Notes under the pieces: generated by a model
Database searches by the model: none
The model's input: the letters and a program-made list of their open reading frames with translations, nothing else
Told to the model about the DNA's origin: nothing
Made by a program: the position numbers and the translations under genes
Source: a virus
Taxonomy: Duplodnaviria > Heunggongvirae > Uroviricota > Caudoviricetes
Reading direction: 5' to 3' (one strand)
IMG/VR virus record: IMGVR_UViG_2579778634_000020
Length of the DNA stretch: 46,724 nt
Part shown: positions 733-34,925 of the stretch, in pieces
Numbering within the stretch: position 1 is the first letter of the stretch
Layout: every line of letters starts with the position of its first letter

Positions 733-3222
733 TCAATGTTCGCTTCCTGTTAACTGCCGGACAAGTGCAACCAGTTCGCTTACCTGATTTTCCAGAGTGC
801 TGATCCGGGTGTCTGCTGTTGCCAGATTTTCACGTAGCGTTGTGTTTTCCTCTTCCAGCGCGGTAACGCGATCATCTGTTTCACGGGCGACCTGAACAAG
901 TAAACCCGTCACGGCGGCGTAGTCAACATTAAGATAGCGCGTTTCTTCGCGTAGCTCGTTGCCGTCAACGGTCGGACCTTGTAACGCTTCACCGTAATGA
1001 GTAAACGATCCCACAGCTTCCGGTAGCGCCTCCATTACCTCCTGAGCGATAACGCCAGCGTAAGGTAGTCCGTTTTCCTTAAGGGTATAAGTGTACCCGT
1101 TCATTTTGCGGATGGCTTCAGTTGCATCACCTATAACCTGAATGTTGTCCTTCAGATCACGATCAGATGATTGGTTTATCGTTTCGCATGTAATGTGACC
1201 AGACGCTTTAAGATTTTTTACATCAAGTCTGTCGTTTGCAAAATTATATGAAATTGCGGTGCTGGTGCTTCCGGCATCATCATAATCGCTTTTATGAATA
1301 AACCAGTTTCCACCATTAGCAATGAGAGTATAAGTAGGCGTGTTAGCCGGGCGATCTGTTTCATTAAATCTTATTGCTGGGTTAGCGCTCCTTATTTGTA
1401 AAGGTTTTTCAACCGTGGATTTCAGTATCGCACTATCTACAATTAAATTACCTTCTGAGTTAATGTTTAGATATTTTGAAGCACCAGTTGAACCATCGTA
1501 TGTAAACCTTATTGTTAATTGACCTGGCTCATTTGATAAAGTCTCAACATACATATCAGCACCAAGACGCACAGTGCTGTCAGTTGCTAACAGTCTTGTA
1601 TGGAGAATACCACTAGATGTGTATGTATTGGTCGAATCACTATATCTATCAAGAAATAGACTGTTAAGTTGAGGGCTATTGCTCCTGCCTAATCCAAGAT
1701 TCGTTCTGGCACCATCAATAGTTGCCGCACCAGTACCTCCGGCCGCGATCGAAAGCGGAATCCATTCGCTATTCTCTGCATCGTAATAACCCCATGTTCC
1801 TGAATCGTAGATACTAAAAAATTTGCTTGCATTTTGACAATATACGCGTGTATTACCTGTTAGTTGAGTAAGCCTGTCCACTTCATCTTTTCTTGCGTGA
1901 CGCGTCCACTGCGGGCCTATTGTCGGATTCCAGCGATAAGTATAAAGCGAGCGCGTAGCCCATCCCTGAAATACACCTGTATACGCTGGTGTTCCATCTA
2001 CCTGACTAATAAACCCCGTAAGACTGCTTTCACCGGATGCAATCGATGGAAAGCCTTTTGCATTACTCATAATGCGCATAAATCCGATATACCCTGATGG
2101 GTTGCCGGAAATATCAGGACAATCACGCGGGGCTGAGCCAAGACCGATATTATCGCCAACAATTACTTGCGCCTGGTTGCGATAATTAAGTGCGTCCGCT
2201 GCAGATTTCGCCGCGTTTGTTTCACTGGATTTAGCATTAGTTTCGCTGGCTTTAGCGTTTGTTTCGCTGCTCTTTGCTGCTGCCTCGCTATTTTTCGCGT
2301 TGGTTTCTGATTTTTTGGCTGCTGTCGCGGAGTTTGCCGATGCAGTTTGTGAGGCCGCTGCCGCCTGTGCGCTGTTATCCGCATTCGTCTCAGACGTTTT
2401 TGCGGCCTTCGCGGAATTTCCTGCCGCCGTTGCCGAGGAAGCTGCACTACTGGCACTTGATGATGCGTTCGTTTCTGATGATTTCGCTGCCTCTTTTGAG
2501 GCCGCCGCATCCCGGGCTGAGGTGGCAGCTTCTGACGCTTTCGTGGTCGCGGTGGATGCAGAAGTGGCTGCAGATTTTTGTGACGCTGCAGCATTCGTTT
2601 CTGACGTTTTCGCCGCACCGGCACTGGTAGCCGCCGCGCTTTTTGAGGACTCTGCAGCGGCAGCACTTTTTGATGCTTCAGTAGCCTTTGTTGATGCCGT
2701 TCCTGCGCTGGAAGACGCTGACTGAGCCGACGTCGCGGCCTGCCCGGCTGATGTGCTGGCTGCACGTGCTGAGCCTGCAGCATCAGTCGCATGGGTTGCC
2801 GCCTCACGGGCTGATGTGCCGGCATCGCTGGCTGACTTCTTCGCGGCTGCCGTGTTCTGTTCCACTGCGGACGCGTTACGCGCCACCTCTTCCACCATCA
2901 GTTCAAAGCGGCGCAGTGCCTCCGGACGGGCATCATCCTCCGTCATGGCACCGAGAAAATCATTCAGTGTGCCCGGCTTTGAGTCCTCATATACGGTGAT
3001 AATCCCGGCGTGTGACGGCGGGAATCCCTCCACCAACAGACTGACGCTGTACTGACCATACTCGACGTCCATTGTGTAACGCCCGGCTTCATCCGGGTTT
3101 TCTGAGGCCACTGTGTTCACCACCACCGTGGTGCTGTTGCGCCTGGCCTTTAGCTGAATGGTGCAGTTTTGTATCGGCTTACCTGCGCCATCTTTCAGTA
3201 CACCTGAAATCCGTACTGCCAT
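733..3222 (-). CDS. Side tail fibre. It has an Stf-like N-terminus, a long Ala/Ser/Thr-rich repeat shaft, and a C-terminal intramolecular-chaperone (peptidase S74-type) domain.
   Basis: The N-terminus MAVRISGVLKDGAGKPIQNCTIQLKARRNSTTVVVNTV.. matches the remembered StfR/lambda Stf N-terminus. The C-terminus SDRDLKDNIQVIGDATEAIRKMNGYTYTLKENGLPYAGVIAQEV.. is typical of the auto-cleaving chaperone domain. RBS GGGGGGA is present. Confidence 0.9.
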   Translation of the reverse strand: MAVRISGVLKDGAGKPIQNCTIQLKARRNSTTVVVNTVASENPDEAGRYTMDVEYGQYSVSLLVEGFPPSHAGIITVYEDSKPGTLNDFLGAMTEDDARPEALRRFELMVEEVARNASAVEQNTAAAKKSASDAGTSAREAATHATDAAGSARAASTSAGQAATSAQSASSSAGTASTKATEASKSAAAAESSKSAAATSAGAAKTSETNAAASQKSAATSASTATTKASEAATSARDAAASKEAAKSSETNASSSASSAASSATAAGNSAKAAKTSETNADNSAQAAAASQTASANSATAAKKSETNAKNSEAAAKSSETNAKASETNAKSSETNAAKSAADALNYRNQAQVIVGDNIGLGSAPRDCPDISGNPSGYIGFMRIMSNAKGFPSIASGESSLTGFISQVDGTPAYTGVFQGWATRSLYTYRWNPTIGPQWTRHARKDEVDRLTQLTGNTRVYCQNASKFFSIYDSGTWGYYDAENSEWIPLSIAAGGTGAATIDGARTNLGLGRSNSPQLNSLFLDRYSDSTNTYTSSGILHTRLLATDSTVRLGADMYVETLSNEPGQLTIRFTYDGSTGASKYLNINSEGNLIVDSAILKSTVEKPLQIRSANPAIRFNETDRPANTPTYTLIANGGNWFIHKSDYDDAGSTSTAISYNFANDRLDVKNLKASGHITCETINQSSDRDLKDNIQVIGDATEAIRKMNGYTYTLKENGLPYAGVIAQEVMEALPEAVGSFTHYGEALQGPTVDGNELREETRYLNVDYAAVTGLLVQVARETDDRVTALEEENTTLRENLATADTRISTLENQVSELVALVRQLTGSEH

Positions 3223-3231
3223 ATTCCCCCC

Positions 3232-3260
3232 ACAAAAAAGCCCGCCTGAACCGGCGGGCT
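3232..3260 (-). terminator. Intrinsic terminator after lom
   Basis: Stem AGCCCGCC/GGCGGGCT (3239-3246 with 3253-3260), then a T-run on the minus strand. Confidence 0.75.
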
Positions 3261-3286
3261 GTCATAACACTGTGTTACCTGGCTAA

Positions 3287-3886
3287 TCAGAATTTATAAC
3301 CGACACCAACGATGAAACTGTTGGTACGCCAGTCACCGCTGCCGGAGCCTTCATAAGCGACGTCAACGGCCACGGATTCGGTCGGGTTAAACTGCACGCC
3401 AGCTCCCCACGCCAGAGACGTGTTGCTGTGGCGACCGTCATCACTTCCGGTCAGCACATCGTGCGTTTTCCCCTTGTTGTCAGTTACGCGGATATAATCC
3501 CCGGAGAAAGTCGACACACGGCTGTAAGCCATACCCGCCATCGCATACGCGCTGAACCATTCATTCACGCGCACAGACGGCCCCGCCATCACGCTGAACC
3601 AGCGATTACGCACGGAATCCTCATGCCAGCGGGTATCGCTGTAATGCGTTTTTTGCTCATCTTCAGCGTTGGCATAACTGAATGACGTAATCAGCCCCAG
3701 CGTGTCCGTAAACTCATAACGGTATTTCACGTTAATCCCGTTCAGATTATCGCTGCCGGGAGCGTTCGTACGGGCATGAAGATACCCTGCGCTCAGTGTG
3801 GCCTGCTGCTCAGACGCCCATGCAGGCGCACCGGATACGGCCAGACAGATGGCTGCGGACAAAATGGCTGCACAAACTTTACGCAT
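3287..3886 (-). CDS. lom: Lom/Ail-family outer-membrane beta-barrel protein (moron)
   Basis: Signal peptide MRKVCAAILSAAICLAVSGAPAWA, alternating beta-strand pattern and a terminal YKF. Sits between J and the tail fibre, as in lambda. Confidence 0.9.
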   Translation of the reverse strand: MRKVCAAILSAAICLAVSGAPAWASEQQATLSAGYLHARTNAPGSDNLNGINVKYRYEFTDTLGLITSFSYANAEDEQKTHYSDTRWHEDSVRNRWFSVMAGPSVRVNEWFSAYAMAGMAYSRVSTFSGDYIRVTDNKGKTHDVLTGSDDGRHSNTSLAWGAGVQFNPTESVAVDVAYEGSGSGDWRTNSFIVGVGYKF

Positions 3887-3908
3887 AATTACCTCTCGCT
3901 TTTCTGCA

Positions 3909-3935
3909 ATAAAAAAGGCGCCATTTCTGGCGCCC
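3909..3935 (-). terminator. Intrinsic terminator after J
   Basis: GGCGCC (3917-3922) pairs with GGCGCC (3929-3934), followed by TTTTTT on the minus strand. Confidence 0.7.
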
Positions 3936-3953
3936 GTATATGGGTTATAAAAT

Positions 3954-13209: not shown

Positions 13210-13979
13210 CTACACACACTGCTCCTGAAAATACTGGTCATCCAGTGCAAAGATCACTGCTTCAAATTCATCGCGCTCAATCAATACCGGATGAGTGGCT
13301 AAATATTCATTTATCTCTGTCAGAGATAAAGGCAAAGGCACCCCAGCCATTCCAGCATAACGTCGGGCACGGGATATTACCGAATAGGCGTACAACAACT
13401 CCTTAAGCACCGGGTCTATTTCTGGTTCCGGTATCGGTGGCAACCTGAGTTTTTCTCGCTTCCATCTTGCCTTTTCCCCCCTTTCTCCCCCGAACTCCGA
13501 TAACCACCGCTGGGCAGCTATGGCTTTTTTATCGTATCCTGCTTCTGCTGCTCTTTACCCTGGGCGATGCTGGCTGCTTCTGCAAGGATCTGCCAGTACA
13601 ACTCTGGATTCTGCTTAAGCAGCGCGATCCCTCGTTCTGCCGTATATTCCAGTGCAACCTCAACACCATTAACCAGTTCACCAACCCCTTTCCAGTCTTT
13701 CAGCAGATAACGAGCGGCATTATCAATGAGTAAATCATCAACAGAATCCACCTCGGAAACCTTTGAAATATCAAACTCCTTCGTTCCGACGTGCAAACTG
13801 GCATCCATTTTCTCAATGTGGCGACGGATTAATGCATTACGGGAGCGATACTGATCGTTATCGCTGCTTGCCACCAACAGTTTTAACCCGTCTACAGGTT
13901 TTAAGTCCTTCATTGGCGTAAACCAGCGTTCTCCACCAATGATAATTTTCTGATTAAGAATAAACATCCATAACCTCAT
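13210..13979 (-). CDS. G-T fusion chaperone made by a programmed -1 frameshift at A AAA AAG
   Basis: The slippery heptamer AAAAAAG lies at 13524-13530 (minus strand), 2 codons before the G stop. The -1 frame stays open from there to 13210 (KKAIAAQRWLSEFGGERGEKARWKREKLRLPPIPEPEIDPV..). Confidence 0.75.
13518..13979 (-). CDS. Tail assembly chaperone G
   Basis: Position upstream of the tape measure. Ends just after the slippery heptamer. The start may instead be the ATG at 13967. Confidence 0.8.
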   Translation of the reverse strand: MRLWMFILNQKIIIGGERWFTPMKDLKPVDGLKLLVASSDNDQYRSRNALIRRHIEKMDASLHVGTKEFDISKVSEVDSVDDLLIDNAARYLLKDWKGVGELVNGVEVALEYTAERGIALLKQNPELYWQILAEAASIAQGKEQQKQDTIKKP

Positions 13980-21399: not shown

Positions 21400-22710
21400 T
21401 TAAATCCGAAGTGATGTGACTCTTCCGGTCGGTTTGACAATAGGGAATTGCTTAACGATGAAATAACCTCCGGCATCATTCGGGTGATCATTGCCAGATT
21501 TTTTATCAGGCTCCCCCTTATCATCCCAGACCTGTTGCTCCAGAGATTCGGCATATACCGGACAACGCTTCACATTAACTTTATAGCGACGCTCACCATT
21601 GGCATTGCAGAACATTGCATTCATTGAGTTAACGCGATCTTTTACTGGCGGGTTCGAGCTGTTCACCACAACGTTAAAACCAGCCTGCTTAAGCTGGGCT
21701 ATATCCGTCGTACTTGCGTTACTTGATTTTCTGGAATCTCCGGAAGCATCTGGATAAATATAAATCTCCCTCACTTTCCGGTAATCATTCCCGTCATACA
21801 GCCAGAAGCGTTCTTTAATGATGCGGATCATATCCGGCGTATCGTAGGCATTGATGATTTCAGTTACCGCACATGGAAGCCCCAAACGCAGCACATGGAC
21901 GATCCCCGCCATCTTTCCAACGTTAAAATCCATCCCAATATAAATCGGCTCCCCTGGCTGCTCCACTTCTTCGCAATTATTCAGTTTCCGGTCAAACTGA
22001 TGGTAAACAGTACCACTTGTCAGGTTAGTAAACTGTCCTCGAAGATAGGCTTTAATCAGCTCTGGAGGGTATGATTCAAGAAGCGAAGGAATGTAATCTG
22101 CTGGCAGGTTCTTTTCATTATCGAAAGTAGATGCCTGCACCAGACCATACAGTGAGGCCAGCTCTGTTTTTTCACGCACGGCTTTAACAAACTGCTCGTA
22201 GACAAATTTGAATCCTTCCGGCGTGGTTGTAACGTCAATACCGTTGCGAAGTCCATCAATCTTATAACGCATACGCGCAATTATCTTGCGCCACGCCGTT
22301 CTGGCTTTTTCCTTCGGCAAAATGTCCAGTTCATCCACCAGCGCATTACCAATTTTGAAACCGACGATCGTTTGTGGCTTCTCCATCGATCTGCAGATAG
22401 TGGTTCCCCGATACTGGCGTCCGTAATAAAAGTGAACCTCTTTATTTCCCTCATTAATTTTTACGTTCAATCCCCAGTCAGCAGCAACTTCTTCCACTGT
22501 AGGGTAAAAAATATCGCGAATTTGGGGATACGTTGGCGCAAAATATCCCTGATTTATACCTGGATGCTCCCAAATCCCCTTGCATATGCCGCCACACCCA
22601 ACCCATGTTTTGCCCGAGCCAAAACCAGCAATATAGGCTTTAAATTTATGGGGCATTGAAAGAAATCGCGCCTGAGGCACATTAAGCGTCGGAGAGATCA
22701 TCTTCATCAC
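21400..22710 (-). CDS. Terminase large subunit
   Basis: Walker A GFGSGKT near the N-terminus and a C-terminal nuclease region. 436 aa. Confidence 0.95.
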   Translation of the reverse strand: MMKMISPTLNVPQARFLSMPHKFKAYIAGFGSGKTWVGCGGICKGIWEHPGINQGYFAPTYPQIRDIFYPTVEEVAADWGLNVKINEGNKEVHFYYGRQYRGTTICRSMEKPQTIVGFKIGNALVDELDILPKEKARTAWRKIIARMRYKIDGLRNGIDVTTTPEGFKFVYEQFVKAVREKTELASLYGLVQASTFDNEKNLPADYIPSLLESYPPELIKAYLRGQFTNLTSGTVYHQFDRKLNNCEEVEQPGEPIYIGMDFNVGKMAGIVHVLRLGLPCAVTEIINAYDTPDMIRIIKERFWLYDGNDYRKVREIYIYPDASGDSRKSSNASTTDIAQLKQAGFNVVVNSSNPPVKDRVNSMNAMFCNANGERRYKVNVKRCPVYAESLEQQVWDDKGEPDKKSGNDHPNDAGGYFIVKQFPIVKPTGRVTSLRI

Positions 22711-23776
22711 TCCTTACTCTGGCATCAACCACATTAATATTGATCGCCACAGGCTGGGGATGTTCATTATCTTCCACCGTTTCGATCTCTTTGCGCAGCT
22801 TCTGGTTTTCCATTCTGCGCCGTTCAATTTCCAGTTCCTGTAGCCGTTTATCTGCACATAAAGCCCCGCCAGCAGAAAACAAACGCAACAATTCACGCCG
22901 GGCGGCAGCCTTATCCTCCAGCAGGATCTCAACGCCGAATTTTCCGAATTTTGCCCCTGCATATAATTGCCGCGCATCCCCATCAAGCAGAGTGGTATCA
23001 GCCATATAAAGCTGTCCCGTTCCCTCACCGCAGCACTTCGGGCAGTCCGGATTGGGTATGGCGTTATCAACAAAGCCGAGGCCTCCATATTCCGGTTCGG
23101 GTTTGCCATCTCTGGAAGCCTGCGCCGCTGCCTTGTCGAATTCTGCTATATCGCGCCACTGGTAGAGATGATTCTCGCCCCAGCAATAACGGCAGTTAAC
23201 ACGGCGAAATTGTGCAAGCTGATTGGGGTCGGCCAGGACAATGGCCATCAACTGACTCACCAGTAAATCCAGGTCTGCGGTATAGCGTTTCTGGTACTGA
23301 TTGCGGAAGTAGCTGATAGCGCGAAAAACCCTGGCATTTCTAAGCATACGACTGGCGTTGCTGTTAGCTGTCGCACCTTGCCCCTCATAACCGGCTAGTC
23401 GGTACGCCTCTGTCGGCTTTTTCCCCTGAGCAACAAGCATCGCAAACTTAGCCTGCTGGTCAGAAATGCCGAATTCATCGGGACAGAACGAAAATTCCTC
23501 CGCGTCGCCCTCATTCAGGCCCGCATCGAATACTGGCTTTTTTTCCTGAGATTTTTCGTTCCGCTTTTGTGCAGTCTGCGCAGATTTTTTCTGCGCACTT
23601 TTTTGCGCAGTTTTGCGCATTTCTGTCTGCGCATTTTTCGGAGGTTTTTTGATGTAACGACGGGCTGTTGCGTAATTCAGTCCCCTTGCTTCACACCATG
23701 CCACCGGAGATATACCGGAGCGGGTGTATTCAGCAATATACTCCTGCTGCAACGCCCCCCAGTCCGGTCTGCTCAT
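22682..23776 (-). CDS. Terminase small subunit (Terminase_2-like core with HTH N-terminus and Zn-ribbon-like C-terminal part)
   Basis: The core ..QQAKFAMLVAQGKKPTEAYRLAGYEGQGATANSNASRMLRNARV.. is the typical TerS motif. Also contains CRYCW..CPKCCGEG. Confidence 0.85.
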   Translation of the reverse strand: MSRPDWGALQQEYIAEYTRSGISPVAWCEARGLNYATARRYIKKPPKNAQTEMRKTAQKSAQKKSAQTAQKRNEKSQEKKPVFDAGLNEGDAEEFSFCPDEFGISDQQAKFAMLVAQGKKPTEAYRLAGYEGQGATANSNASRMLRNARVFRAISYFRNQYQKRYTADLDLLVSQLMAIVLADPNQLAQFRRVNCRYCWGENHLYQWRDIAEFDKAAAQASRDGKPEPEYGGLGFVDNAIPNPDCPKCCGEGTGQLYMADTTLLDGDARQLYAGAKFGKFGVEILLEDKAAARRELLRLFSAGGALCADKRLQELEIERRRMENQKLRKEIETVEDNEHPQPVAININVVDARVRSDEDDLSDA

Positions 23777-23779
23777 CAG

Positions 23780-24031
23780 TTAGTCCTGATTTTTATCCAC
23801 CCTGAGTAGTTCGCGCAGAGCAAAGGCATCCCCTTTTCTGGCAAGCTTAAACAATGCCGCTCGTAACTCGGCTTCACCTTTCGCTCTGCCCTTACGGATG
23901 GCCGCATAAAAATCTGTCATTGCTTCCCGATTTTCTTTCAGTCGGTTCAGATCAACATCCAGAACGTCAGCGATTTGTTGTGCAGTCATCCGGCACGCTG
24001 CCAGAGACTCGACTTTCGAATACGGAATCAT
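23780..24031 (-). CDS. Small HTH protein (TerS-associated type)
   Basis: 83 aa with RBS GGGGTGA. The motif ..MTAQQIADVLDVDLNRL.. looks like an HTH. Confidence 0.7.
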   Translation of the reverse strand: MIPYSKVESLAACRMTAQQIADVLDVDLNRLKENREAMTDFYAAIRKGRAKGEAELRAALFKLARKGDAFALRELLRVDKNQD

Positions 24032-24899
24032 TTGTCACCCCTATTGATATGCAGGGTGTCTTCTTCCTGTATTTTTCGTGAAGGATTTTTACTGCAGCGT
24101 TGTTCCAGGTGACCTGATGGTGAATGCGTTTATGGCTGGCACCCATCAGTGAGATTTTTACGCACGACGGCGCATACATGACGGAGTAAAAACTTTTAAC
24201 GTAGGTTCCGGAATCCAGATACAGCTCGGTCATTCCGCCGCTGTTTTTCTGCGTCTGTTTCTGCCCTAACTGGACAGCACCGATCGTCATGAACAATTCA
24301 CCACAGCGACCGAGATTCGTGTACGTATTCACATCCTCGTTAATGCGCCCCATGAATGAGAACGGTCGATCAACCGAACAGATAAAGCTGTTCATTGCCT
24401 TGCGTTTCACCCACGAAGCATGGCCGCCATTGTCACCAAGAAAATCCCCGCCCTGCGACATAGCGATGGAAAGAGCAGGTATTGATTCGTAGTACGCCAG
24501 CATTTCAGAAAGGATCGCATCCAGTTTCCTTATCGGAAAATAGGCCTGGTCATAGTTGCGATCCACCCGAAACTGGAACTCGTGATAATCATCATCGAGC
24601 TGAATGAAGTATTTACACCCGACCAGTTTTGCCAGGTCGAAACAGGCATTACGGGCGTAAAAAATTGAGCGGCGGTCACCGAAATTATCGGCTTCGTCAA
24701 AACGACTGGCGATATCGGCTTTGGAAAACACCAGCACCTGTTCACCAAATTCAGCCATGTACTGATGCCGTGTCTTATCTTCATCATCAACAACGATAAA
24801 AATTTTCCCGGTATAGCCAGCACGACGCAACGTCCGGTAAGTCAGAACTTTGTCCGGTCGCCCGTGAGTCAGAATAAAGGCGCAAAAATCATCACGCAT
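23967..24899 (-). CDS. GT-A-fold glycosyltransferase-like protein (full-length counterpart of the K-12 ydaY remnant, from memory)
   Basis: AFILTHGRP beta-strand, IVVDDED, the DxD-type QLDDDY and a later NEDVNTY. The ATG at 24899 sits behind GGAGGAGG and overlaps the ParB-like stop by 8 nt. The 3' end overlaps the next gene by 65 nt. Confidence 0.6.
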   Translation of the reverse strand: MRDDFCAFILTHGRPDKVLTYRTLRRAGYTGKIFIVVDDEDKTRHQYMAEFGEQVLVFSKADIASRFDEADNFGDRRSIFYARNACFDLAKLVGCKYFIQLDDDYHEFQFRVDRNYDQAYFPIRKLDAILSEMLAYYESIPALSIAMSQGGDFLGDNGGHASWVKRKAMNSFICSVDRPFSFMGRINEDVNTYTNLGRCGELFMTIGAVQLGQKQTQKNSGGMTELYLDSGTYVKSFYSVMYAPSCVKISLMGASHKRIHHQVTWNNAAVKILHEKYRKKTPCISIGVTNDSVFESRVSGSVPDDCTTNR

Positions 24900-25683
24900 A
24901 TTCCTCCTCCTCACCACCATGCATGATCTCCACCATGCGCTGCGTCATCCGGACAAATCCATTTTCAATAGCCTGCTGATAATCAATGATCACCAGCGCC
25001 GACTCCTCGAAAAAACACTGAATTTCAGCGGGGGCGTGAGCGTAATAGTCCGCAATTCTGCTGAAATTAAACACCGTGTGACGTTCTGCCGCACACAGGA
25101 GGAATTTCTCAATATCAGGCTCAAGAGACGCCGAACGTATCCGGCTGATCAGCTCCTGAGTTTTCGTATCGTCGTACAGTTCACTGATATCCGGTTTACC
25201 GCCCGACGGCTCATAAACAGGCGTATCAATTTTCGTCGTATACGGCTCCTCCTCATTTCCTGTACCGGGCAAAACATCCGTCAACAGTTCATCAATTTCT
25301 GTCGGGATGAAGCCTGTCAGGGAGACATCAAAATCAGCATTGATTAGGTCCGACAGCTCCATCCGCAACAGATCTTCATCCCAGCCAGCATTCATCGGCA
25401 GGCGATTATCTGCCAGGCGGTACGCCTTTTTCTGCTCATCCGTCAGGCCAGACAGAACAATGACCGGAACAGAATCCATTTTGAGCATTTCAGCCGCCAT
25501 AACACGACCGTGACCCGCAATAATTTCGCCCTTTTCGTCAATCAGCACCGGATTAGTCCAGCCGAATTGCTTAATACTTTCTACCAGTTGTGCCACCTGC
25601 TCAGTACTGTGCGTCCTGGCGTTGTGCGCATACGGTGACAATTCTTGTAATGGGCGATAGACTATCTTTAATTTCTCGCTCAT
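24892..25683 (-). CDS. ParB/Srx-like nuclease-domain protein (full-length ynaK-like)
   Basis: The N-terminus ..LSPYAHNARTHSTEQVAQLVESIKQFGWTNPVLID..IIAGHGRVMAA.. is a ParB N-terminal domain. No methylase motifs follow it. Confidence 0.8.
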   Translation of the reverse strand: MSEKLKIVYRPLQELSPYAHNARTHSTEQVAQLVESIKQFGWTNPVLIDEKGEIIAGHGRVMAAEMLKMDSVPVIVLSGLTDEQKKAYRLADNRLPMNAGWDEDLLRMELSDLINADFDVSLTGFIPTEIDELLTDVLPGTGNEEEPYTTKIDTPVYEPSGGKPDISELYDDTKTQELISRIRSASLEPDIEKFLLCAAERHTVFNFSRIADYYAHAPAEIQCFFEESALVIIDYQQAIENGFVRMTQRMVEIMHGGEEEEYA

Positions 25684-25699: not shown

Positions 25700-25734
25700 A
25701 ATAAAACGCACCCCAGCAGCCAGTGCTACTGGGG
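25700..25734 (-). terminator. Terminator after trkG
   Basis: CCCCAG...CTGGGG hairpin (25711-25734), then TGCGTTTTATT on the minus strand. Confidence 0.6.
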
Positions 25735-25820: not shown

Positions 25821-27296
25821 TTAGGAGCGCCAAAAAAAACCTGAAAACAATATAATAACAGGATAAATTTCAAGGCGACCAAGAATCATAGCTATGCACA
25901 TTAAACATTTTGCAATGTCATTAAGCACTCCGAATGACGATGCAGTAGCCCCAAAACCTAATCCCATATTATTAATACATGCAGCCACTGTTGCAAATGA
26001 TGTAAGAAAATCATATCCCATACCATTTAACACCAGTATAAAAAACACCGTGAAGAGAGTATAAAGAAAAAAGAAACTCCATACAGACCTCATTACACGA
26101 TCTGTAACTATCTTCCCTCCTACATTTACACTCAACAACGCTCTGGGATGAGAAAGCTGATTTATCTCGTGTTTGCTTTGTTTGAAAAGTATAAGAAATC
26201 GAAGTGACTTAATTCCACCACAAGTTGAACCTATACATCCCCCAAAGAAACTTGACAACAGCAAAAACACTATCGTGTGCGTGGGCCAACTTGCATAATC
26301 CTGCGTAGCTAAACCATTATCAGTGAGCATGGAGCTGGCAAGAAAAAACGAATGAATAAAACTTCCATGCAAGTCATACATACCTATATGCCAGACCTGG
26401 AAAGAGGTAACAATGATCACCCCTAAGGCTATTAACAGAAAGAAACGAAGTTCAATATCTCTGATTAAAGGTTTTATCGTTTTCCTGCTAATAACAATAT
26501 ACCAAAGAGTGAAGTTGAAAGCCGATAGCAGGGAAAAAGAACCAGCCACCAGCTCAACCAAATAGTTATTAAAATATCCGATACTCTCGCTATGAGTTGA
26601 GAAACCACCAAGCGAAACTGTGGAAATCCCGTGACAAATAGCATCAAACAAAGGCATTCCTGCAAGTCTATAACAGACAATACAAGCAATACCTAATAAA
26701 GAATAAGTTATCCACAGTGTCCGTGACGTATCGGCCAGGCGGGGAGTGAGTTTGTCATCCTTAAATGGCCCCGGCATTTCTGACTGATAAAGCTTTGCAC
26801 CACCAATACCCAATAATGGCAATACAGCAACCGCCAGAACAATAACTCCTAAACCACCTATAAAATTTAACTGTGACCGATAGTACAAATATGCCCGAGG
26901 TAATGAACTAACATCATCAATTACAGTTGCTCCTGTTGTTGTTATTCCAGAAACCCCTTCAAACAGAGCATCAATGAACGTTAAATTAAGTTCTGAGTCA
27001 ATCCATAAAGGGAATGCACTAATAACAGAAAACAAAATCCAAAACATTACAATTATAATAAACCCATCACGGGTACGTAATTGAATGCCAGATTTCTTAG
27101 TTGTATACCACGCTCCGCCACCAATGCAAAAAAATATAACGAAAGTTATAAAGAAAACGAACAGGCTTTTTTCTTTATAAAACAATGCTACAACCATTGG
27201 TGGCAACATTGAAAGACTATAGAGCCAAACCAGGAACCCACACATATGAGTAACAACTCTTACATGAGATGTATTCATATCTAAATATTCTTTCAA
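25821..27296 (-). CDS. trkG: Trk-system K+ uptake membrane protein TrkG
   Basis: Near-identical to the remembered K-12 TrkG (MNTSHVRVVTHMCGFLVWLYSL..). The annotated-type ATG is at 27278. An upstream TTG at 27296 has a better SD (AGGTGG). Confidence 0.95.
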   Translation of the reverse strand: MKEYLDMNTSHVRVVTHMCGFLVWLYSLSMLPPMVVALFYKEKSLFVFFITFVIFFCIGGGAWYTTKKSGIQLRTRDGFIIIVMFWILFSVISAFPLWIDSELNLTFIDALFEGVSGITTTGATVIDDVSSLPRAYLYYRSQLNFIGGLGVIVLAVAVLPLLGIGGAKLYQSEMPGPFKDDKLTPRLADTSRTLWITYSLLGIACIVCYRLAGMPLFDAICHGISTVSLGGFSTHSESIGYFNNYLVELVAGSFSLLSAFNFTLWYIVISRKTIKPLIRDIELRFFLLIALGVIIVTSFQVWHIGMYDLHGSFIHSFFLASSMLTDNGLATQDYASWPTHTIVFLLLSSFFGGCIGSTCGGIKSLRFLILFKQSKHEINQLSHPRALLSVNVGGKIVTDRVMRSVWSFFFLYTLFTVFFILVLNGMGYDFLTSFATVAACINNMGLGFGATASSFGVLNDIAKCLMCIAMILGRLEIYPVIILFSGFFWRS

Positions 27297-32031: not shown

Positions 32032-33861
32032 ATGAGCACTTCCGCATACAAGAGCAAAATTCGAACACTCCAGTGCGCGTTAAAAAACGGTGAATTTGAA
32101 CCATTCATACAACATATCCGTTTTCCATACTTTAAAAATATAGAGCAGAATGCAAGGATCGATTTTCAGTTCCCTATAACGGCTTTAGTAGGAAAAAATG
32201 GAACTAATAAAAGTTCTGTTATCAAAGCGCTATTTGGTTGCCCACATGGTAAAAATATAACTCGTTATTGGTTCACAACTGAAACAGATGAGTTTCCTGA
32301 CCTAAAACTTGCTGATGGCAGTTCTCTTAAACCTAGATATATATATGGATATAAAAATGCTGATGGCCGTTTAGTTGAAATACTCCAAGCACGTATCAAT
32401 GCTACCAAGAAAACAATCGATTATTGGGAAACAAGTCGACCATCTGTTGGTGATAACATGGAGAGTATTTCGGATGATCTGGGTGCTAATAGTAATGCAA
32501 CCAGATGGAAAAAAATCAAGAAGGGATTGGTTTTCCTAGATTTCAGATCGGAAATAAGTGCATTTGATAGATGTATGTATCACTCTGATTTTAAATTAAG
32601 AAAGAAGAAGAGTGGTGTATTAATTACAAAGCAAGACTATATCAGAAGCAAATCTAAATATATAAAGAAAGCTTTTGATGAAAAGCTAAGTAATTTAAGA
32701 CTCTGGGGGGCGGAAACCATTGTTAAAAATATAACCTTGGCGCCAGAACTAGTTGAGCACGTCTCATTTATATTAGGGAAAAAATATAAAGTCATTAAAT
32801 TTCTTGAGCATCGGTTATTTGGAACCAGAGGAGGAACCGCTTTACTTTCAACTGATAAGTTGAACTATACAGAAGCGTTTGCTGGAAGTGGTGAATTTGC
32901 AATAGTTTCACTAATACTCAATATTTATTCGGCCAAACCTAATTCATTAATTCTTCTTGACGAACCAGAAGTTTCACTTCACCCTGGTGCACAAAAAAGG
33001 ATGATGGATGTTCTGTACTCTATTGTTGAGCAGAAAAAACATCAAGTGGTAATATCAACCCATTCTCCTGTTATTGTGAACACTCTTCCCAAAGATGCCA
33101 TTAAATTATTTGTTTTTGATGAAGAGAGTGAAACAGCTAAAATAGTTCAAAATATAGCACCGGATGAAGCTTTTATAGAGCTAGGGCATGATATTAACAA
33201 GAAAACAATAATTGTAGAAGATAAATTAGCTAAAGCAATTATAGATAAAGCGATTAAAAATGATGAAAGATTAAGCTTATCATTTAGTGTAAGTTATATA
33301 CCAGGTGGTTCGGAGACCATTTTAAGCAAGCATCTTCCCAGTTACGCTGTGGTAGAACGCAATGATATTTTGTTTTTACTTGATGGTGATAAAAACAAAA
33401 AAATAAAACCAGTAAGAATTAGTGAAATTGCTGATGCTGATTTAGTTAATACAATGTGCAAATATTATGGTTGCGAGTTAATTATCAATGCCAGTGGTAG
33501 TAATGGCAAAAAAAATGAACAAGAATCTAATAGACTCAAAAGGCAAGTGCTTGAGTATGCATTCAATAAAGTGCAGTATTTACCATTTGATACTCCCGAA
33601 CAATTACTCATTGAAAAGGCAATTACGCCAAGTGAAAAAGAAATAATTGATTCACAGACCTGGAGTTCTAATGATCCAGAACTGTATAAGAATCAAATAA
33701 GATTATTAGCGCAACACCTGTATGATAAAGAAGAAGTAAATGCAGAGGAAATTTTTTGCCTCCAACAAATGATGACCGCAAGACTTAAAAATGAATTGCC
33801 TGAATTTATAAAAATAAGAAAAATAATTACTCAGGCTCTTGACCGTGGTATCATTAGGTAG
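32032..33861 (+). CDS. ABC-type (AAA_15/21-like) ATPase fused to a C-terminal Toprim/DUF4435-like region; OLD/PARIS-like architecture
   Basis: Walker A GKNGTNKS (aa 54-61), signature-like AGSGE (aa 284-288), Walker B LILLDE (aa 306-311), H-loop STHSP (aa 342-346). C-terminal IIVED (aa 393-397), PGGSE (aa 424-428) and LLDGDKN (aa 449-455) resemble the Toprim E..DxD pattern. Confidence 0.8.
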   Translation: MSTSAYKSKIRTLQCALKNGEFEPFIQHIRFPYFKNIEQNARIDFQFPITALVGKNGTNKSSVIKALFGCPHGKNITRYWFTTETDEFPDLKLADGSSLKPRYIYGYKNADGRLVEILQARINATKKTIDYWETSRPSVGDNMESISDDLGANSNATRWKKIKKGLVFLDFRSEISAFDRCMYHSDFKLRKKKSGVLITKQDYIRSKSKYIKKAFDEKLSNLRLWGAETIVKNITLAPELVEHVSFILGKKYKVIKFLEHRLFGTRGGTALLSTDKLNYTEAFAGSGEFAIVSLILNIYSAKPNSLILLDEPEVSLHPGAQKRMMDVLYSIVEQKKHQVVISTHSPVIVNTLPKDAIKLFVFDEESETAKIVQNIAPDEAFIELGHDINKKTIIVEDKLAKAIIDKAIKNDERLSLSFSVSYIPGGSETILSKHLPSYAVVERNDILFLLDGDKNKKIKPVRISEIADADLVNTMCKYYGCELIINASGSNGKKNEQESNRLKRQVLEYAFNKVQYLPFDTPEQLLIEKAITPSEKEIIDSQTWSSNDPELYKNQIRLLAQHLYDKEEVNAEEIFCLQQMMTARLKNELPEFIKIRKIITQALDRGIIR

Positions 33862-33884
33862 TGATTCTGGATGCAGAGGGAAAA

Positions 33885-34925
33885 ATGAAAAAAATCAAAG
33901 TGTTTGACTTCTTTTCCGGTTGTGGTGGAACCAGCCAAGGTTTCCATCAAGCTGGAATGGATATTGTTTTTGGCCTCGATTTCGACGTTGATGCAGCCAG
34001 TTCATTTCGTGCAAATTTCCCGCAGGCTGCTTTTATTAACTCGGACATTAGGTTAATCGACAACAATGCCATAAACAAGTTAGTAAAAAAACATCGTAAT
34101 GATTACATTCTTTTTTCAGGATGTGCGCCTTGTCAACCGTACTCTAAGCAAAACTCAAATAAGAAAAATGATGATCCACGATTAGATCTATTAAAGGAAT
34201 TCAGTCGCTTTGTAGAGCATTATATGCCTGATTTTATTTTTGTTGAAAACGTGCCAGGAATGCAAAAGTTTAACAAAAATGAAGGAACATTCATGATGTT
34301 TTTAGAAATGCTTTCATCAAAGGGATATAGTGTAGATTATAAAGTAATGCCAGCTGCGTGGTACGGTGTACCACAGACGCGAGAAAGATTAGTGCTCATT
34401 GCATCCAAGGATTTTTATGTCGCATTGCCTTCTCCTACACATGGGGTTGGAAATACTCCCTATTCAACAGTAAAGGACTGGATCGCTAATTTACCGAAGA
34501 TAGAAGCAGGAGAAAAGCATAATAGTATTCCTGATCATGAAGCTGCACGCTTATCAGAGCTTAATTTACGTAGAATAAAATGCACTCCTGAAGGTGGAAG
34601 TCGAGAATTTTGGCCAGATGAATTGATTTTAGAATGCCATCGTAACCATAAAGGGCATACAGACGTATATGGACGTTTGAGTTGGGACAAACCAGCCAGC
34701 GGACTAACAACTCGTTGTATTAGCTATTCAAATGGACGTTTTGGACATCCAACACAAAATCGAGCAATATCGGTTCGTGAAGCAGCGTGTCTACAAACAT
34801 TTCCTTTGGATTATAAATTTATTGGTTCTTTGCAATCTCGGGCTCGTCAAATAGGAAATGCGGTCCCTCCGAAGATGTCTGAAACGATTGGAAAACATTT
34901 GCTTAATATAATCAAAGCCTCCTAG
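33885..34925 (+). CDS. DNA (cytosine-5) methyltransferase
   Basis: All conserved motifs are present: I DFFSGCGG, IV GCAPCQPYS, VI FVENVPG, VIII QTRERL, IX SVREAACLQTFP, X GNAVPP. ATG at 33885 follows GAGGG. The ORF track starts it at GTG 33861. Confidence 0.95.
   Translation: MKKIKVFDFFSGCGGTSQGFHQAGMDIVFGLDFDVDAASSFRANFPQAAFINSDIRLIDNNAINKLVKKHRNDYILFSGCAPCQPYSKQNSNKKNDDPRLDLLKEFSRFVEHYMPDFIFVENVPGMQKFNKNEGTFMMFLEMLSSKGYSVDYKVMPAAWYGVPQTRERLVLIASKDFYVALPSPTHGVGNTPYSTVKDWIANLPKIEAGEKHNSIPDHEAARLSELNLRRIKCTPEGGSREFWPDELILECHRNHKGHTDVYGRLSWDKPASGLTTRCISYSNGRFGHPTQNRAISVREAACLQTFPLDYKFIGSLQSRARQIGNAVPPKMSETIGKHLLNIIKAS

Follow-up and report, generated by a model that had tools for sequence, protein, structure and literature searches.

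The stretch of viral DNA analysed here (46,724 nucleotides (nt), IMG/VR record IMGVR_UViG_2579778634_000020; called the window throughout) is an intact Rac prophage, integrated beside ttcA. Between its lysis and packaging genes lie two adjacent genes which encode a ParB-like protein of 263 amino acids (aa), here called the partner, and a 310-aa glycosyltransferase (GT) of the TAGT (TET-associated glycosyltransferase) family. In a 99.5% identical copy annotated by PGAP the gene order is intR-xisR-...-recET-...-racR-ydaSTUV-...-Q-like-holin-lysozyme-Rz-trkG-partner-GT-small hypothetical-TerS-TerL-head genes, TerS and TerL being the small and large terminase subunits; the PGAP label of the partner gene is 'ParB/Srx family N-terminal domain-containing protein'. 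A 1.7-kb query comprising the two genes matched 1580 of 5426 complete E. coli genomes, 889 of which hold at least 80% of the query, and near-identical elements have been deposited as phage records. An earlier note on this DNA had singled out the two genes as a candidate DNA-modification pair located beside the packaging genes, and that location proved to be the usual one, as terminases follow the pair in Rac and in relatives.

The partner and GT genes are translationally coupled. The partner stop codon and the GT ATG overlap by 8 nt in the common octamer ATGCGTGA, as read from the sequence, and GAGGAGGAGG ends 3 nt upstream of the ATG. Both features had been described in the earlier note, which left the strand unstated; they lie on the minus strand. 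An alternative ATG upstream, at 24920, would give a GT of 317 aa. Junctions in relatives overlap or abut as well, with overlaps of 4-29 nt in annotated phages and gaps between the open reading frames (ORFs) of -41 to +17 nt across all loci.

The glycosyltransferase and its partner protein

Profile searches showed that residues 8-222 of the GT match positions 4-205 of the 205 in Pfam PF20691 (TAGT) with 121.5 bits and an E-value of 6e-35, the gathering cut-off being 27.5; phrog_842 is matched at 8.6e-104. The orthologues of the haloarchaeal virus HHTV-2 (106.7 bits on PF20691) and of a Porphyromonas phage (58 bits) are above the cut-off too. With more than 8000 homologues, which form 1329 clusters at 50% identity, the GT family is large. 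The four motifs AFILTHGRP, IVVDDED, QLDDDY and NEDV, which the earlier note had listed as hallmarks of a GT-A nucleotide-sugar transferase, are all present. Alignment of 17 homologues, down to 59% identity, revealed that G13-R14-P15, D38/D41, D102-D103-D104-Y105, N187-E188-D189-V190, G221-G222-M223-T224 and H260-H261 are invariant. The motif set R14 ... DDD102-104 ... E188-D189 is intact in the Rac enzyme; R...DDD...ED[Y/F] is the motif set of phage GT-A enzymes proven to glycosylate 5-hydroxymethylcytosine (5hmC) in DNA (bioRxiv 10.1101/2023.12.21.572611).

The AlphaFold2 (AF2) model of the GT has a mean predicted local distance difference test score (pLDDT) of 64.7, with a confident N-terminal half and a poor C-terminal half. 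When this model was compared with the PDB using Foldseek, only GT-A enzymes were found (ColGalT1, chondroitin polymerase K4CP, SpsA, LARGE1, glycogenin and SunS), with E-values of about 1e-4 and template modelling (TM) scores of 0.3-0.39. A Foldseek search of BFVD ranked viral TAGT-domain proteins at the top (E 2.7e-19, TM 0.63/0.69). A sequence-level search for a solved structural relative gave none. Judged by its sequence and predicted structure, the 310-aa protein belongs to the TAGT family of GT-A nucleotide-sugar transferases, and the earlier assignment of the fold stands.

The conserved basic region of the GT that extends mostly past the end of the Pfam model (Table 1) contains residues that are invariant in alignment A1. 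It is covered in part by phrog_31222 (residues 199-280) and is poorly modelled by AF2. The GT is mostly neutral to basic, and its aromatic-rich residues 216-285 have an isoelectric point (pI) of 9.7.

GT homologues are usually 285-290 aa long and end about 21-25 residues before the end of the Rac GT. An alignment of the junction DNA (A3) showed that Rac has 2 additional nt right after the conserved ...HEKYRKK. In relatives, the TGA stop codon of the GT gene overlaps the ATG of a small helix-turn-helix (HTH) gene, and the shifted frame of Rac runs through this junction for 65 nt more. The resulting 65-nt overlap with the next ORF (23780..24031) holds for the longest form of that ORF; with the start chosen by PGAP (MTAQQ, 69 aa) the overlap is 23 nt. 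According to the 3'-end alignment, the 65-nt overlap is a fixed +2-nt indel limited to the non-conserved tail, which bears out the suspicion in the earlier note of a frameshifted tail. Programmed frameshifting was considered as a source of the overlap and rejected in favour of this indel.

For the co-occurrence of the two genes, loci were collected from three sources: viral contigs, metagenome contigs and genomes sampled at one per species. The partner is encoded directly upstream and on the same strand in about 108 of about 108 TAGT loci for which upstream DNA is available (hmmsearch E-values 1e-31 to 1e-134), and about 45 of these loci are not Rac-like. A reverse search, starting from divergent partners, gave 80 of 80 viral loci with TAGT downstream: the genes are adjacent in 72 loci, overlap beyond the cut-off in 5 and are separated by an insertion of about 850 nt in 3. 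An all-against-all comparison of the ORFs from 31 diverse loci identified the partner and TAGT as the only universal families, and no third co-conserved gene was found in these loci. Hosts of the pair include Enterobacteria, Desulfovibrionaceae, Bacteroides, Lachnospiraceae, Planctomycetes, Ignavibacteria, Acidimicrobia and Saccharibacteria. Cultured viruses that carry it include the Lactobacillus phages phi jlb1 and c5, Nocardia phage NTR1, a Porphyromonas gingivalis phage (GT 28% identical) and HHTV-2, the partner of which is a full-length match (2.6e-88). The co-occurrence check proposed in the earlier note thus came out positive in both directions. Going by this distribution, partner and TAGT are an obligate functional pair.

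No convincing partner-TAGT fusion of the Rosetta stone type was found; of the two proteins that match both profiles, one is probably an artefact of a frameshift and the other a chimera created by deletion. Long TAGT proteins exist in which the domain is fused to a SAM (S-adenosylmethionine)-methyltransferase, a sulfotransferase, a second TAGT or a P-loop kinase-like N-terminal region, the last recognised from sequence only; fusion or diversification of TAGT is seen in proteins P0128, P0131, P0147, P0148, P0151, P0166, P0167 and P0188. One soil lineage carries ParB-like, TAGT and TAGT genes in tandem (L083-L085, ~1357-3938). In three viral contigs (L173 2909-3892, L180 5190-6173 and L196 5722-6675) a gene for a fused histidine phosphatase (His_Phos_1) and cytidylyltransferase-like protein is inserted between partner and TAGT, and its product plausibly makes a nucleotide-activated donor. 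The fusions, the tandem genes and this insertion hint at an enzyme that is active and is diversifying.

Both genes are under purifying selection. In comparisons with relatives of about 80% identity the nonsynonymous divergence (dN) amounts to 0.12-0.15 in the GT gene and to 0.24-0.29 in the partner gene, the synonymous divergence (dS) is saturated in both cases, and dN/dS of the partner is about 0.11 where computable. It could be argued that the pair is decaying or non-functional cargo of a defective prophage, as the GT and the greater part of the partner are missing from Rac of K-12, at least 80% of the pair is present in only 889 of the 1580 matching genomes, the tail of the Rac GT is frameshifted and the GT appears fragmented in the dairy phages LL-Ku, Ld17 and Ld25A. 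This explanation is barely tenable because it is contradicted by conservation: the catalytic and family-invariant residues are intact, purifying selection is strong, the frameshift affects only the non-conserved tail, and the pair is conserved across domains of life. Moreover, the prophage in the window is intact and near-identical elements were deposited as phages.

The partner contains the sequence IIAGHGRVMAA and ends in EEEEYA*. Its residues 23-90 match Pfam ParB_N with 29.3 bits (cut-off 26.3) and its full length matches phrog_620 (1.3e-90). Foldseek matches of the N-domain are Noc, ParB, PadC, KorB and Srx (sulfiredoxin), and also SerK. A PDB profile search matched it to the N-domains of Noc and ParB, aligning GHGR to the GERR of Noc. 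Compared to the CTP-binding GERR motif, the second Arg (R60) is invariant and the first is replaced by Gly. Across the whole range from E. coli to the haloarchaeal virus, no variation is seen in the Asn of box I (N21), the Gly and Arg of box II (G57, R60) or the Asn of box III (N93). Nucleotide binding and specificity of ParB-fold proteins are not predictable from sequence (PMC12704722). The ParB-like similarity is limited to residues ~1-135. This N-terminal module matches the ParB module of ParB-methyltransferase fusions (phrog_498, 8.9e-51, residues 3-141; PADLOC MTase_II PDLC03229, 1.7e-38, residues 10-144). The matches to fusion profiles, which have 436-633 positions, stop at about residue 144, and no methyltransferase family matched the 263-aa protein. 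The earlier note was therefore correct in describing a ParB/Srx N-terminal domain that lacks a fused methyltransferase. Assignment of the pair to a PADLOC defence system was rejected, as the partner matches through the ParB module only and the GT gave no match to the PADLOC defence models. A role as partition ParB finds no support either: the match to TIGR00180 covers the N-domain only and, with 38 bits, stays below the cut-off of 58.45, the prophage has no parA and the protein has no HTH.

The linker motif that follows the N-domain (Table 1) is located in a stretch predicted to be disordered (residues 137-169, pLDDT <50). It is kept in HHTV-2 and in partners that have no ParB N-domain. Searches of Pfam and of PDB profiles with the unit of linker and C-domain gave no significant match. 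The ParB N-domain, which is present in 178 full-length partners of the sample, is usual but dispensable, and linker plus C-domain alone (~131-148 aa) precede TAGT in at least four lineages. One of these ParB-less partners is found in Vibrio phage pv27 (L114), amid primase, helicase and exonuclease genes, and another in a Lachnospiraceae contig, between the genes for DNA polymerase A and a sliding clamp; the others are in one Bacteroidetes contig and one viral contig. The ParB-less partners of pv27 and L105 sit among replication genes, not beside terminase. Since linker and C-domain precede TAGT on their own in several lineages, the invariant partner is this undescribed unit of about 120 aa, composed of linker motif and helical domain.

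Table 1. Positions of the two genes, their domains and motifs, and neighbouring features in the window; for ParB-less partners the locus is named with the position
Feature	Position	Strand	Remarks
ParB-like partner gene, 263 aa	24892..25683	(-)	ORF; full-length form of K-12 ynaK; WP_001291105
ParB/Srx N-domain of NTP (nucleoside triphosphate)-binding type, residues ~1-135	25279..25683	(-)	box-II-like GHGR (R60); AF2 pLDDT 70-92
Invariant linker motif YTTKIDTPVYEPS, residues 148-160	25204..25242	(-)	consensus Y-[TS]-x-K-[IV]-x-x-P-x-Y; alignments A2, A4, A5
C-terminal helical 'TAGT-partner' domain, residues ~170-254, then acidic tail	24922..25176	(-)	block FLLxAAERHTVFNFxKIADYYAHA..LFExSALVIID..AIENGF
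Junction of partner and GT genes	24892..24912	(-)	Shine-Dalgarno-like GAGGAGGAGG 24903-24912; GT ATG 24897-24899; partner stop TGA 24892-24894
TAGT-family GT-A glycosyltransferase gene, 310 aa from ATG (MRDDF)	23967..24899	(-)	PGAP 'GREB1-related protein'; WP_001204036
DxD motif D102-D103-D104 (QLDDDY)	24588..24596	(-)	metal/nucleotide-sugar binding signature of GT-A enzymes; invariant in alignment A1
Conserved basic C-terminal GT region, residues ~216-280	24060..24254	(-)	GGMT..Y..GTY.K.FY..M.P...R.HH..W..K; mostly past Pfam model end (222)
Frameshifted lineage-specific GT tail, residues ~281-310 + stop	23967..24059	(-)	last 65 nt overlap next ORF
Small HTH gene between GT and TerS, 83 aa (longest ORF) or 69 aa (PGAP)	23780..24031	(-)	phrog_309 TerS fragment, 8e-23
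Terminase genes directly downstream of the pair	21400..23776	(-)	TerS 22682-23776, TerL 21400-22710; Pfam Terminase_2, Terminase_6N/6C
Terminator-like hairpin after trkG moron	25711..25734	(-)	consensus scan: 10-bp stem, 7 GC pairs, T-run
ParB-less partners	L114 5432-5875; L082 6166-6570; L105 5607-6011; L109 4899-5294		linker motif + C-domain only

Relation to known systems

The TAGT family includes the beta-glucosyl-HMC-alpha-glucosyltransferase of phages T2 and T6, which adds a second glucose to glucosyl-5hmC (PMC13216743, PMC13390438). Like this enzyme, the Rac GT is phage-encoded and scores above the threshold of Pfam PF20691, for which a GT-A fold is described in PMC13216743. The T6 enzyme scores 37 bits on this model against 121 for the Rac GT and is a distant relative only, and tblastn searches with the GT at 1e-5 gave no T-even phage. 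The T6 TAGT gene abuts the gene for dCMP hydroxymethylase (annotated as thymidylate synthase) and the T6 enzyme needs alpha-glucosyl-5hmC, whereas Rac is without both; conversely, the 17-kb region around the T6 TAGT gene has no annotated ParB-like gene. Because the relation is distant, the PHROG-derived name 'beta-glucosyl-HMC-alpha-glucosyltransferase' is not to be taken as a function for the Rac GT.

The phage GT-A enzymes associated with 5mYOX/TET dioxygenases share the GT-A fold and the R...DDD...ED motifs with the Rac GT. Post-replicative action on DNA has been shown for this group, and ParB and terminase genes are among the neighbours (bioRxiv 10.1101/2023.12.21.572611; Burke et al. PMC8256090). 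The enzymes also resemble the trypanosome base-J glucosyltransferase (bioRxiv 10.1101/2023.12.21.572611). They rely on a neighbouring methyltransferase plus dioxygenase or on a ThyS-type hydroxymethylase, none of which accompanies the Rac-type pair. Unlike these 5mYOX-linked enzymes, the Rac-type TAGT subfamily has an obligate dedicated partner domain.

Dependence of a DNA-modifying enzyme on a ParB-like protein has been described for phage thymine dioxygenases (5mYOX176/ParB176; O'Toole et al., PNAS 2026), which require the cognate ParB-like protein for action on double-stranded DNA (PMC13229309). ParB176-type proteins consist of an NTP-binding domain and a C-terminal domain and have no DNA-binding domain; predicted structures put the enzyme between both ParB domains (PMC13229309). 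The Rac partner is similar in architecture, has conserved NTP-motif residues and is likewise associated with terminase genes. The systems differ in that the Rac pair contains a glycosyltransferase, whereas 5mYOX176 is an Fe/2-oxoglutarate dioxygenase, and in that the ParB N-domain of Rac-type partners is dispensable in some lineages, whereas 5mYOX176 needed both ParB domains.

Phage ParB-DNA methyltransferase fusions are enriched in prophages (PMC12704722). Their N-terminal ParB module of ~140 residues is shared with the Rac partner, in which the linker motif and the undescribed helical domain take the place of the methyltransferase and catalysis resides in a separate, coupled polypeptide. A further base-modifying enzyme that needs a ParB-like NTPase partner is found in the DpdA/DpdB system for 7-deazaguanine modification of DNA. 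Unlike a sugar transferase, DpdA is a transglycosylase that exchanges a base. GREB1, a large cytoplasmic eukaryotic protein with a TAGT domain, is reported to O-GlcNAcylate oestrogen receptor alpha (PMC7968844). It belongs to the same domain family and is the source of the PGAP name of the GT, which is uninformative on the substrate of the phage enzyme.

Solitary TAGT/GT-A genes, in genomes without an enzyme for a hydroxymethylated base, have been noted in 288 of 753 phage genomes (PMC13216743), and about 65% of GT-containing contigs likewise lack such an enzyme (bioRxiv 10.1101/2023.12.21.572611); both surveys left the role of these genes open. A 2025 survey of the ParB-CTPase fold makes no mention of a glycosyltransferase partner (PMC12704722). 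The linkage of TAGT to ParB is credited to Aravind and co-workers (Iyer et al. 2013) by a paper that cites them (PMC8256090). Literature searches on ynaK/ydaY, on ParB + GT pairs and on HHTV-2 DNA modification returned nothing on this pair. Not found in the literature searched were the strict two-way pairing, the recognition that linker and C-domain make up the invariant partner, the complete lack of a pathway for the precursor and the range from Rac to a haloarchaeal virus. One large and ancient TAGT subgroup is thus not solitary: it always occurs with a dedicated partner, built from a ParB/Srx domain and an undescribed domain, in parallel to the ParB-dependent thymine dioxygenases.

Genomic context and possible acceptors

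The pair is mostly found just before the terminase genes, of whatever type these are; at least four unrelated types occur (T4-type in Rac, Terminase_4/TerL_ATPase, lambda GpA, Terminase_3/gp3). In the cos-phage c5 it forms ORF1/ORF2, beginning 79 nt after cos, and in a few lineages it is located with replication genes rather than packaging genes. The pair also occurs in phages of about 190 kb that infect Vibrio, and no integrase is annotated in c5, which argues against a role in lysogenic conversion.

Our preferred reading, which we hold tentatively and at slightly less than an even chance, is that the pair is a glycosylation module which is expressed late, is activated by the partner and modifies phage DNA just before packaging or while it proceeds. 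The GT would be an active, metal-dependent GT-A nucleotide-sugar transferase and the ParB-like protein its stoichiometrically co-translated, obligate partner. By analogy with the ParB-dependent thymine dioxygenases, which are the closest functional precedent, and with the phage ParB-methyltransferase fusions, the partner, itself not DNA-binding, would dock on the GT through the linker motif and C-domain and would license it for double-stranded phage DNA; it might serve as an activator or as a clamp gated by NTP. The surface that binds DNA or the acceptor would be the basic, aromatic-rich C-terminal region of the GT itself. Sugar added to phage DNA around packaging would make the injected genome less visible to the nucleases of the next host, and evasion of nuclease-based defences is the probable benefit. 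We infer the physical complex, the activation, the DNA target, the late timing and the anti-defence role, and likewise the late, antitermination-dependent expression in Rac. DNA is preferred as the target because of the known substrates of the family, the ParB module shared with DNA methyltransferases, the packaging or replication context and the requirement that bacteria and archaea share the acceptor. Such an acceptor must be universal, because the hosts span Gram-negative and Gram-positive bacteria and archaea and because virion and terminase proteins differ among the carriers.

Several observations weigh against a DNA target. The main obstacle is that the classical acceptor is missing, since neither dioxygenases nor hydroxymethylases accompany the pair. 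A TET/JBP dioxygenase or thymidylate-synthase-like hydroxymethylase was found neither in the PGAP-annotated Rac copy (window 21-46 kb) nor in the complete genomes of phi jlb1 and c5 (32-38 kb); the window from 1 to 21 kb contains only large minus-strand ORFs, which were taken without annotation as head and tail genes. Neither enzyme is among the 25 families that were listed for 130 ORFs flanking the pair in about 40 diverse loci, these ORFs being mostly terminases, portals, proteases and nucleases with few DNA methyltransferases. Both enzymes are also missing from four Pfam-annotated metagenomic neighbourhoods, and the families recurrent in the 31 loci include no dioxygenase, single rare occurrences being possible. 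A first alpha-glucosyltransferase or dCMP hydroxymethylase that could provide a T-even-type acceptor is absent from Rac (annotation of window 21-46 kb), phi jlb1 and c5. The acceptor cannot be 5hmC or 5-hydroxymethyluracil from any recognised phage route.

The protein models and the relation to T6 add to these difficulties. AF2 confidence is low in the C-terminal halves of both GT and partner. An hhalign comparison of alignment A1 with the T6 protein gave a probability of 0.1%, so the link to T6 is made by the shared Pfam model alone. In every lineage the partner is a strongly acidic protein, and all three of its regions share this property (pI 4.3-5.2, net charge -15 to -33; pI 4.49 and -25 in Rac); no HTH, basic or DNA-binding domain was found in its AF2 model or among the fold matches. 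With these properties, and with the ParB N-domain absent in some lineages, the earlier view of the partner as a DNA-binding ParB finds no support. Modified DNA in a pair-carrying phage has not been reported in the literature searched, which is absence of evidence only. To our knowledge, there is also no precedent for glycosylation of a canonical DNA constituent. We nevertheless consider it a serious if somewhat unlikely candidate that TAGT, only when licensed by its partner, glycosylates a canonical part of double-stranded DNA. The sugar could, for example, be placed on the phosphate, on an exocyclic amine, on a carbonyl or ring position, or at one defined site close to cos/pac. If true, this would be a new two-gene DNA modification, present in about one-sixth of complete E. 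coli genomes and in viruses of many bacterial phyla and of haloarchaea.

The classical TAGT role would be retained if a hydroxylated or glycosylated pyrimidine were supplied from a hidden source, which could be the partner C-domain, a host enzyme or a distant phage gene. The known TAGT acceptors are indeed 5hmC derivatives, invariant polar residues (R, Y, E, D) occur in the C-domain, whose fold matches none known, and C5 and N6/N4 methyltransferases occur nearby, three each among the 130 ORFs, with a C5-methyltransferase in Rac. We give such a precursor a slim chance, as the complete carrier genomes of 32-38 kb have no candidate oxygenase or hydroxymethylase and the methyltransferases are not co-conserved with the pair. 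A helical domain of ~90 aa without metal-ligand motifs is an unlikely oxygenase, and a host precursor would have to exist in bacteria and haloarchaea alike.

The lack of a hydroxylated DNA base in the genomes and neighbourhoods examined is also compatible with O-glycosylation of a protein. The acceptor could then most simply be the linker motif of the partner itself, in a glycogenin-like manner, or else a packaging or replication protein, with the ParB-like module delivering or regulating the glycoprotein. The partner is the only other universally conserved protein, and its linker motif has conserved hydroxyl residues in a predicted disordered, accessible stretch. Enzymes that modify proteins are among the Foldseek matches of the GT (glycogenin, ColGalT1 and SunS), and in eukaryotes the TAGT protein GREB1 glycosylates a protein, as an O-GlcNAc transferase (PMC7968844), which also counts against DNA as the target. 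On the other hand, the characterised phage members of the family act on DNA, the N-domain of the partner is shared with DNA methyltransferase fusions and the pair invariably lies in a packaging or replication context. The linker motif can equally be explained as a docking peptide, and a glycosylated ParB-like protein has no evident role. On balance we consider a protein target unlikely; if the partner protein is the target, the pair would represent a new kind of phage protein glycosylation that is tied to genome packaging.

Finally, the required universality of the acceptor across bacteria and archaea would also be satisfied by RNA (e.g. a tRNA base), by a nucleotide or nucleotide-derived immune signal, or by DNA ends, in which case the proximity to terminase would reflect late timing only. 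The proteins with a ParB/Srx fold, among them small-molecule kinases, bind a variety of NTPs (PMC12704722), in line with the Srx and SerK matches of the partner, and the pair adjoins cos in phage c5. Such acceptors have no precedent in the TAGT family, the partner N-domain is closest to DNA methyltransferase fusions and the neighbourhoods contain no pointers to RNA or signalling, so that we regard them as quite improbable. If the preferred reading, glycosylation of phage DNA, is correct, the pair would constitute a new two-gene route to glycosylated DNA without prior hydroxymethylation, with a bearing on phage-defence biology, on sequencing and restriction artefacts and on DNA-labelling tools. 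The system is convenient for testing, as it consists of two genes that are absent from K-12 and intact in hundreds of E. coli strains and in deposited phage isolates; loci of 99-100% identity are present in strains such as NZ_CP020107.

Neighbouring genes and K-12 remnants

The small HTH gene between GT and TerS was found in 13 of the 31 diverse loci and is outside the universal pair, forming part of its context only. The encoded protein matches the middle of the TerS PHROG phrog_309, and in enterobacterial relatives the gene is kept at this place. It may encode a DNA-recognition module that has split off from TerS or is accessory to it. On the other side of the pair, trkG (25821-27296) is a moron between the lysis cassette and the partner gene, with its own strong terminator-like hairpin; this hairpin is located 28 nt upstream of the partner gene start and its function is predicted only.

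On the opposite strand, at 32032-34925 (+), Rac carries a cargo pair of genes encoding a 609-aa OLD/Gabija/PtuA-like ATPase-nuclease and a C5 cytosine DNA methyltransferase, with a Hok/Gef gene just upstream at about 31.7 kb. The nuclease is annotated by PGAP as 'ATP-dependent nuclease' and has PADLOC matches to HEC-04 and ATPase-Toprim. These two genes look like a candidate defence or restriction-modification-like module. The C5-methyltransferase was considered as part of the glycosylation module and rejected, since it is 9 kb away, on the other strand, beside the OLD/Gabija-like nuclease and not co-conserved. In a phage contig that carries the partner-TAGT pair, four consecutive Glycos_transf_2 genes follow the capsid gene (L087 17837-20316, L088 8659-11138) and may glycosylate the virion independently of the pair.

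The earlier note named ynaK and ydaY of K-12 as fragments of the two genes. This holds for ynaK, which corresponds to the 5' ~254 nt (~84-87 codons) of the ParB-like gene. It does not hold for ydaY: over residues 4-119 it agrees with the tail-assembly-chaperone ORF (window 13521-13868) at 100% identity, and ydaY was rejected as a GT remnant, being a fragment of the tail-assembly-chaperone gene. The GT was thus wholly deleted in K-12, where a deletion of ~11.5 kb took the whole GT gene, the terminase genes and the head genes. It fuses the ynaK part (25430-25683 (-)) to the tail-assembly-chaperone fragment (13518-13979 (-)), as seen in L002 2651-3254. Many database proteins have a 5' part of the Rac GT or ParB-like gene joined to tail-fibre, Lom or terminase pieces (P0005, P0008, P0023, P0033, P0040, P0042, P0045, P0336, P0337, P0346 and P0369), which suggests that deletions in decaying Rac prophages have repeatedly ended in the region of the pair. 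In the Lactobacillus delbrueckii phages phiLdb, Ld17, LL-Ku and Ld25A (H72-H84) the TAGT match is partial or in two pieces, a sign that some lineages can do without the GT and that it has decayed there.

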